Below are positions 4,244-5,422 of a stretch of 64,000 bases of DNA, piece by piece. Below the pieces are notes generated by a model, which saw only the letters and a list, made by a program, of their open reading frames with translations, was not told the origin of the DNA and ran no database searches. Each line of letters begins with the position of its first letter. Within the stretch, counting starts at the first letter, position 1. Source of the DNA: Escherichia coli O157:H7 (GTDB lineage: Bacteria; Pseudomonadota; Gammaproteobacteria; Enterobacterales; Enterobacteriaceae); NCBI RefSeq assembly GCF_013167455.1, contig NZ_CP038328.1; one strand, written 5' to 3'. The position numbers and the translations under genes are program-made.

Positions 4244-5422
4244 ATGACTGCTGTAAGCCAAACCGAAACACGATCTTCTGCCAATTTTTCGCTCTTCCGC
4301 ATCGCTTTTGCGGTTTTTCTCACCTACATGACCGTAGGGTTGCCGTTGCCGGTTATCCCGTTGTTTGTTCATCATGATCTGGGCTATGGCAATACCATGG
4401 TCGGCATTGCCGTCGGCATTCAGTTTCTGGCTACGGTGCTGACGCGTGGCTATGCCGGGCGACTGGCCGATCAATATGGCGCAAAACGTTCGGCGCTTCA
4501 GGGGATGTTAGCTTGTGGTCTGGCTGGCGGCGCGTTGCTGCTGGCGGCGATTTTGCCTGTCTCCGCACCGTTCAAATTTGCCCTGTTGGTCATCGGGCGT
4601 TTGATTCTTGGGTTTGGTGAAAGCCAGTTACTGACAGGCGCTCTGACCTGGGGGTTAGGCATCGTAGGGCCAAAACACTCTGGCAAAGTGATGTCATGGA
4701 ATGGAATGGCGATTTACGGTGCCCTCGCTGTTGGTGCTCCGCTTGGCCTGTTGATTCATAGCCATTACGGTTTTGCCGCACTGGCGCTCACCACAATGGC
4801 ATTACCCTTACTGGCGTGGGCCTGTAACGGCACAGTGCGCAAAGTACCAGCCCTGGCGGGAGAACGTCCATCTCTGTGGAGCGTTGTCGGACTTATCTGG
4901 AAACCAGGGTTAGGTCTGGCACTACAAGGCGTTGGTTTTGCGGTTATCGGGACTTTCGTTTCGCTCTACTTTGCCAGCAAAGGATGGGCGATGGCGGGCT
5001 TTACTCTTACCGCGTTTGGCGGCGCATTTGTCGTGATGCGCGTCATGTTTGGCTGGATGCCGGACCGTTTTGGCGGCGTGAAAGTGGCGATTGTCTCTCT
5101 GCTTGTAGAAACGGTGGGCTTGTTGCTGCTCTGGCAAGCCCCAGGGGCGTGGGTCGCATTAGCGGGCGCGGCGTTAACCGGAGCCGGATGTTCGCTTATC
5201 TTTCCTGCGCTGGGCGTGGAGGTGGTTAAACGCGTCCCCTCACAAGTTCGCGGCACCGCACTGGGCGGTTACGCCGCGTTTCAGGATATCGCCCTCGGCG
5301 TCTCCGGGCCGCTTGCGGGAATGCTGGCGACCACGTTTGGTTACTCTTCGGTATTTCTTGCCGGGGCGATCTCTGCGGTGCTGGGAATTATTGTCACGAT
5401 ACTGTCGTTTCGTCGGGGTTAA
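4244..5422 (+). CDS. yfcJ: MFS-family inner membrane transporter YfcJ
   Basis: 392 aa, hydrophobic with multiple predicted TM segments. Confidence 0.9.

Follow-up and report, generated by a model that had tools for sequence, protein, structure and literature searches.

The convergent genes flk and yfcJ of Escherichia coli meet in a shared four-nucleotide stop: an ordinary overlap in place of which many related genera have REP-like spacers or additional genes

Two convergent genes that leave no DNA between them raise the question of where their transcripts end and what keeps the overlap in place. In the 64,000-nucleotide stretch of Escherichia coli O157:H7 DNA analysed here (hereafter, the window), yfcJ lies on the forward strand at 4244–5422 and flk on the complementary strand at 5419–6414, and the two stop codons overlap within a single TTAA tetranucleotide at 5419–5422. 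The yfcJ gene encodes an MFS transporter of 392 amino acids with its TAA stop at 5420–5422, as supported by the list of open reading frames, by RefSeq and by a match to the Pfam family MFS_1 (E-value 9.5e-36). The product of flk is a flagellar regulator of 331 amino acids with a hydrophobic C-terminal tail anchor, recognisable from hundreds of homologues that carry the name Flk; its TAA stop is the complement of 5419–5421. YhhS is the paralogue of YfcJ. The junction reads ...tcgtcggggTTAAcgaacc..., and its tetranucleotide falls into the YTAR class, as judged from the sequence itself and from orthologous junctions.

The initial annotation, made from the sequence alone, had described the two genes as sharing this stop; the description was confirmed in every detail by the sequence, by the open reading frames and by the RefSeq records of O157:H7 and K-12 MG1655, and the gene names that it gave were right. 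RefSeq places yfcJ at 3218789–3219967 and flk at 3217797–3218792 in O157:H7, and flk at 2437950–2438945 and yfcJ at 2438942–2440120 in MG1655, with an identical 4-nt overlap in both. The open reading frames and RefSeq agree on opposite-strand coding genes with facing 3′ ends, both stops lie inside one tetramer of the set CTAA, TTAA, CTAG and TTAG, and full-length homologues, common C-termini and the MFS_1 match support real genes with true ends. Among the six convergent pairs in the window, flk–yfcJ is the only one that overlaps; gaps of 32, 47, 58, 66 and 120 nt separate the other five.

Within E. coli the junction occurs species-wide. Strain PV15-279 of O157:H7 is 100% identical over the 1001 nt that span it, and with an 81-nt query centred on the junction, 5421 of 5426 complete E. 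coli genomes gave a match covering 80% or more of the query, with identities of 95–100%. Twenty-nine of the 30 matches listed align over positions 1–81 and one over 3–81, all in a single piece, and no spacer appears at the junction in any of these 30.

For a wider view, loci from 80 Enterobacteriaceae species were fetched from genomes of this family with the help of an alignment of Flk proteins of Escherichia and Citrobacter, a search that confirmed 278 Flk-encoding stretches, and both stops were located by script. The exact 4-nt overlap occurs in 30 of the 80 loci (all Escherichia, most Citrobacter, Salmonella arizonae and diarizonae, Yokenella, Intestinirhabdus and three others), where all four tetramers are represented: TTAA in 15, CTAA in seven, TTAG in six and CTAG in two. 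The outer Y and R of YTAR drift by transitions, while the central TA that serves both stops is invariant. Elsewhere, the convergent pair is unchanged with a spacer of 18–93 nt between its members (20 loci), is separated by 340 or 714 nt (two loci) or has 1.55–2.3 kb of DNA between flk and yfcJ (12 loci, including a GH1 6-phospho-beta-glucosidase gene in Kosakonia and genes for a PTS EIIC component and a GntR regulator in one C. amalonaticus). The remaining 16 loci lack yfcJ from the 2.5-kb flank, and several of them show a clear hairpin and T-run directly after flk (e.g. L049 and L079).

In nearly all loci with both genes, spaced or not, the last residues of Flk are those of its hydrophobic tail (...FWLVA*), and YfcJ closes with ...FRRx*. 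With the protein ends unchanged in both states, overlapping and spaced loci differ only in spacer DNA, without any protein extension. This coincidence of homologous C-termini in nearly all species loci also rules out a different true stop for either gene, which the initial annotation had named as the finding that would overturn it.

The loci with additional genes have features of their own. In C. amalonaticus S646 (locus L016), the PTS EIIC and GntR genes occupy 3506–5833, and the GntR stop lies only 4 nt from that of yfcJ, forming another near-abutting convergent pair. No target-site duplication is evident around this 2.3-kb insertion, and the more divergent yfcJ copy of this strain suggests the replacement of a larger segment. 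The Kosakonia glucosidase gene occupies 3512–5096 of locus L064. Three database entries also drew attention: two metagenomic Flk proteins (P0059 and P0061) are half E. coli-like and half Citrobacter-like, in reciprocal order between the two, and look like assembly chimeras, while the contig CACSKA010000009.1 (L058), titled Chryseobacterium sp. 18061, carries an Enterobacteriaceae pdxB–flk–yfcJ locus near-identical to that of Citrobacter sp. 18056 (L062) and probably comes from a mislabelled or contaminated assembly.

We consider it probable that flk and yfcJ form a passively maintained pair at minimal spacing, with transcripts that end diffusely inside the opposite gene, most likely through Rho. 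On this account, two unrelated and independently transcribed convergent genes would have come to the closest spacing that spares both proteins, where the flk stop (TAR) and the complement of the yfcJ stop (YTA) interlock as YTAR, here TTAA. With no dedicated terminator, RNA polymerase arriving from either side would pass the common stop and continue into the partner in antisense; the untranslated read-through RNA would be ended diffusely, with Rho as the most likely agent, possibly helped by head-on encounters between polymerases, and the resulting flk and yfcJ mRNAs would have complementary 3′ ends. The overlap would be kept by purifying selection on both protein ends and not by any benefit of overlapping. 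On this view it is preserved because the two stops share the central TA, so that mutation of this TA abolishes both; as read from the sequence, YfcJ would then be longer by about 50 residues and Flk by 25. [quoted passage not shown]

The initial annotation had concluded that the junction offers no intergenic space for a terminator and that each transcript must extend antisense into the other gene. The first statement is correct in that there are zero intergenic bases, though terminators may also be embedded in the coding sequence of the partner. The second is supported, both by the lack of any intergenic base and by published RNA-seq overlap: because an mRNA needs its own stop codon and because termination, whether intrinsic or Rho-dependent, needs RNA further downstream, each transcript must enter its partner in antisense.

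Both sides of the junction were searched for terminators. No bidirectional intrinsic terminator (a G+C-rich hairpin with an A-tract and a U-tract) lies between the stops, where there is no intergenic DNA and where scan and folds were negative, and no Rfam family matched positions 4000–6700 at E ≤ 1. On the flk strand, a consensus scan found no terminator-like site before 4175–4152, past the whole of yfcJ, and the fold downstream of the flk stop is nothing unusual (z-score −0.48). The same scan on the yfcJ strand returned a single weak terminator-like site at 5470–5486, with the tail CCATATTTTG. Such single matches are weak evidence, since the 2.7-kb region holds nine terminator-like matches against 3.8 ± 2.0 in shuffled sequences.

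On the same strand, a perfect inverted repeat forms an 11-bp hairpin (GGACGCGUUGC-CAUAUUUU-GCAACGUGUCC) at 5477–5506, inside the flk coding sequence and 55–84 nt beyond the yfcJ stop. It is the structure preferred when the 121 nt at 5400–5520 are folded (z-score −2.68). The hairpin and the weak scan match raise an alternative, in which the 5470–5506 region would act as an intrinsic terminator embedded in flk that ends or stabilises the yfcJ mRNA and confines the transcript overlap to a short, defined stretch. Such an arrangement would have precedent, in that, of the 116 E. coli genes involved in convergent overlaps, 23 have a predicted terminator within the partner gene (Lillo & Krakauer, 2007; PMC2174442). 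However, the two candidate structures are mutually exclusive: the stable one places the U-run in its loop and is followed by AUCAUCGG, leaving no U-tract 3′ of the stem. The hairpin is confined to E. coli sensu stricto, being absent from E. albertii, the cryptic Escherichia clades, Salmonella and Citrobacter, and for this reason we regard it as probably incidental. Nor does flk have a counterpart on its own side, and Term-seq data place no 3′ end at the hairpin (Adams et al., 2021; PMC7815308). We judge an embedded intrinsic terminator to be unlikely, and no conserved terminator accompanies the junction.

Termination by Rho can be assessed from base composition and from published maps. Over the first 78 nt past each stop, the C/G ratio is 1.33 for yfcJ (81st percentile of the window) and 1.41 for flk (86th percentile); such moderately high ratios are compatible with Rho loading and are not diagnostic of it. 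In K-12, Adams et al. (2021; PMC7815308) recorded neither a Term-seq 3′ end nor a bicyclomycin-sensitive Rho region within 2438500–2439699, the interval that holds the junction, and low expression alone may account for the lack of both. Supplementary file 2 of the same study does report a Rho region on the minus strand, with its peak at K-12 position 2440043 (Rho score 5.8, p 4e-12) and with up- and downstream read counts of 236 and 15 in untreated cells against 266 and 98 in the presence of bicyclomycin. Mapped through the open reading frame and the MG1655 coordinates, this peak corresponds to window position 4321 on the forward strand, 78 nt into yfcJ. It suggests a premature end, in LB, of yfcJ transcripts or of read-through from fabB, and little transcription from the yfcJ side would therefore reach the junction in that medium.

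Transcription across the junction has been catalogued: the ExcludonFinder study (2025; PMC12288877) lists flk–yfcJ among 165 convergent MG1655 pairs whose transcripts overlapped in half or more (≥50%) of 58 RNA-seq samples. The strand-specific RNA-seq proposed in the initial annotation as a check has thus in effect already been done for MG1655, with an outcome that agrees. Table 1 of that study also holds dcrB–yhhS and, from the present window, the convergent pair yfcH–rpnB.

The same listing, as part of the MG1655 ‘core excludome’, could be taken to mean that the overlap is kept for regulation, as a functional excludon in which complementary 3′ ends bring about mutual repression of flk and yfcJ, whether by transcriptional interference or by RNase III cleavage of the duplex. 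Its persistence across several genera, among them Escherichia, Salmonella and Citrobacter, would fit such a role. Yet the pair was classified by read coverage only (PMC12288877), and the MFS transporter is not known to have any functional link with Flk, a flagellar checkpoint protein. In many related genera, the pair is split by REP-like spacers, extra genes or rearrangements with both proteins intact, and the Rho cut-off early in yfcJ would leave only a small antisense pressure on flk in LB. A regulatory role is possible for this pair, but we hold it to be very unlikely, and a passively maintained overlap would probably have none. An annotation artefact in which one gene ends elsewhere can be set aside with near certainty, as the reading frames fix the stops, full-length homologues support both frames and no evidence in favour of an artefact was found.

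The spacers of Enterobacter, Lelliottia, Leclercia and Pseudenterobacter consist largely of palindromes with the motif CTTACCSGGCCTAC; many of these form inverted pairs, and in one case they make up a tandem array. The motif is very similar to the REP copies of the window itself, where a search for CTTATCCGGCCTAC with up to two mismatches returned 12 matches against 0.2 expected. As the spacer motif is confined to the flk–yfcJ spacer within the 6-kb loci, its assignment as REP rests on its likeness to the REPs of the window and on its tandem and inverted copies. Such REP-like DNA was seen in orthologous spacers from L030 to L075, the shortest being a remnant of 18 nt and the longest an array of 340 nt (e.g. 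3509–3601 in L032 and 3506–3845 in L051), and this range of sizes at a single site shows rapid turnover of the spacer.

The flk–yfcJ junction of the window carries no REP, all 12 motif matches lying elsewhere, and this pair has no convergent intergenic region with a REP or BIME of the kind present at the orthologous Enterobacter-group loci. The copies nearest to the junction are at 3976–3999, starting 7 nt past the fabB stop and upstream of yfcJ, and at 509–545, where one pair occupies the convergent gap between mnmC and yfcL. A REP/BIME cluster of four inverted REP pairs lies in the cvpA–dedD gap at 13374–13688.

The direction of change can be approached from single-gene trees. A neighbour-joining tree of PdxB groups Escherichia, Citrobacter, Salmonella and Intestinirhabdus into one clade with the overlap, and three more overlapping lineages fall among the spaced ones. 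Equal-cost parsimony on this single-gene tree needs five changes from a spaced root and seven from an overlapping root. A spaced ancestor would require about four independent origins of the exact overlap. In the corresponding tree of Flk, also neighbour-joining and single-gene, overlapping lineages fall on both sides of the midpoint root.

Repeated arrival at the same tetramer has a possible explanation in the geometry of stop codons. We infer that stops on opposite strands cannot overlap by 1, 2, 3 or 5 nt, which would make −4 the sole sub-zero spacing that leaves both proteins unchanged. Recurrence of the overlap could follow from this constraint, since a deletion running from the TA of TAR to the TA of YTA would reach −4 in one step. 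The way out may be similarly short: under a spacer-turnover reading, any insertion that duplicates TA or YTAR would restore both stops. IS5-type elements target YTAR and generate a 4-bp duplication. The YTAR junction might on these grounds be seen as the state in which spacer turnover between convergent genes ends, perhaps reversibly, and, as a separate matter, the 3′ overlap could couple the expression of Flk and YfcJ. We offer this more ambitious proposal tentatively and think it unlikely.

Our preferred reading, a passively maintained pair at minimal spacing, places flk–yfcJ in a class that has long been described. [quoted passage not shown] The geometry of flk–yfcJ is identical to that of these 4-nt stop-stop overlaps and all four tetramers occur at its orthologous junctions, making it one member of the class with nothing different in kind. 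Because the 4-nt overlap is a recognised and frequent class, even the only convergent overlap in the window is not statistically remarkable. As to origins, Lillo & Krakauer (2007) favour stop-codon loss followed by 3′ extension, whereas overlapping and spaced flk–yfcJ sites differ by gain or loss of spacer DNA, with their protein ends unchanged. With the convergent excludons of PMC12288877, the pair shares overlapping 3′ transcripts, known for flk–yfcJ from read coverage; the consequence that defines such excludons, mutually exclusive expression by way of interference or RNase III, is hypothetical for this pair.

A third comparison is with the bidirectional terminators and REPs found between convergent genes. 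A recent preprint puts the number of convergent pairs in E. coli at 704, with REPs in 207 of these intergenic regions (bioRxiv 10.64898/2026.03.23.713779). The REP-like palindromes at the Enterobacter, Lelliottia, Leclercia and Pseudenterobacter junctions resemble this arrangement, while the E. coli flk–yfcJ junction differs from it in that spacer, REP and bidirectional hairpin are all absent.

The flk–yfcJ overlap is thus an ordinary and already known member of its class, annotated in the genome records and with its transcript overlap catalogued in 2025. The junction matters little and raises no new question; the useful outcome is the negative one that neither a terminator nor an RNA gene nor an error of annotation is concealed there. 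The comparative series gives a tidy picture of how a convergent junction changes within the Enterobacteriaceae: the genes overlap in Escherichia, Salmonella and Citrobacter, are kept apart by REP-filled spacers in the Enterobacter group and have other genes inserted between them in Kosakonia. Should the proposal of spacer turnover be true, the flk–yfcJ orthologues would form a natural series that runs from REP-filled spacers of 340 nt through 18 nt down to −4, and would show convergent genes in the course of gaining and losing terminator-like elements.
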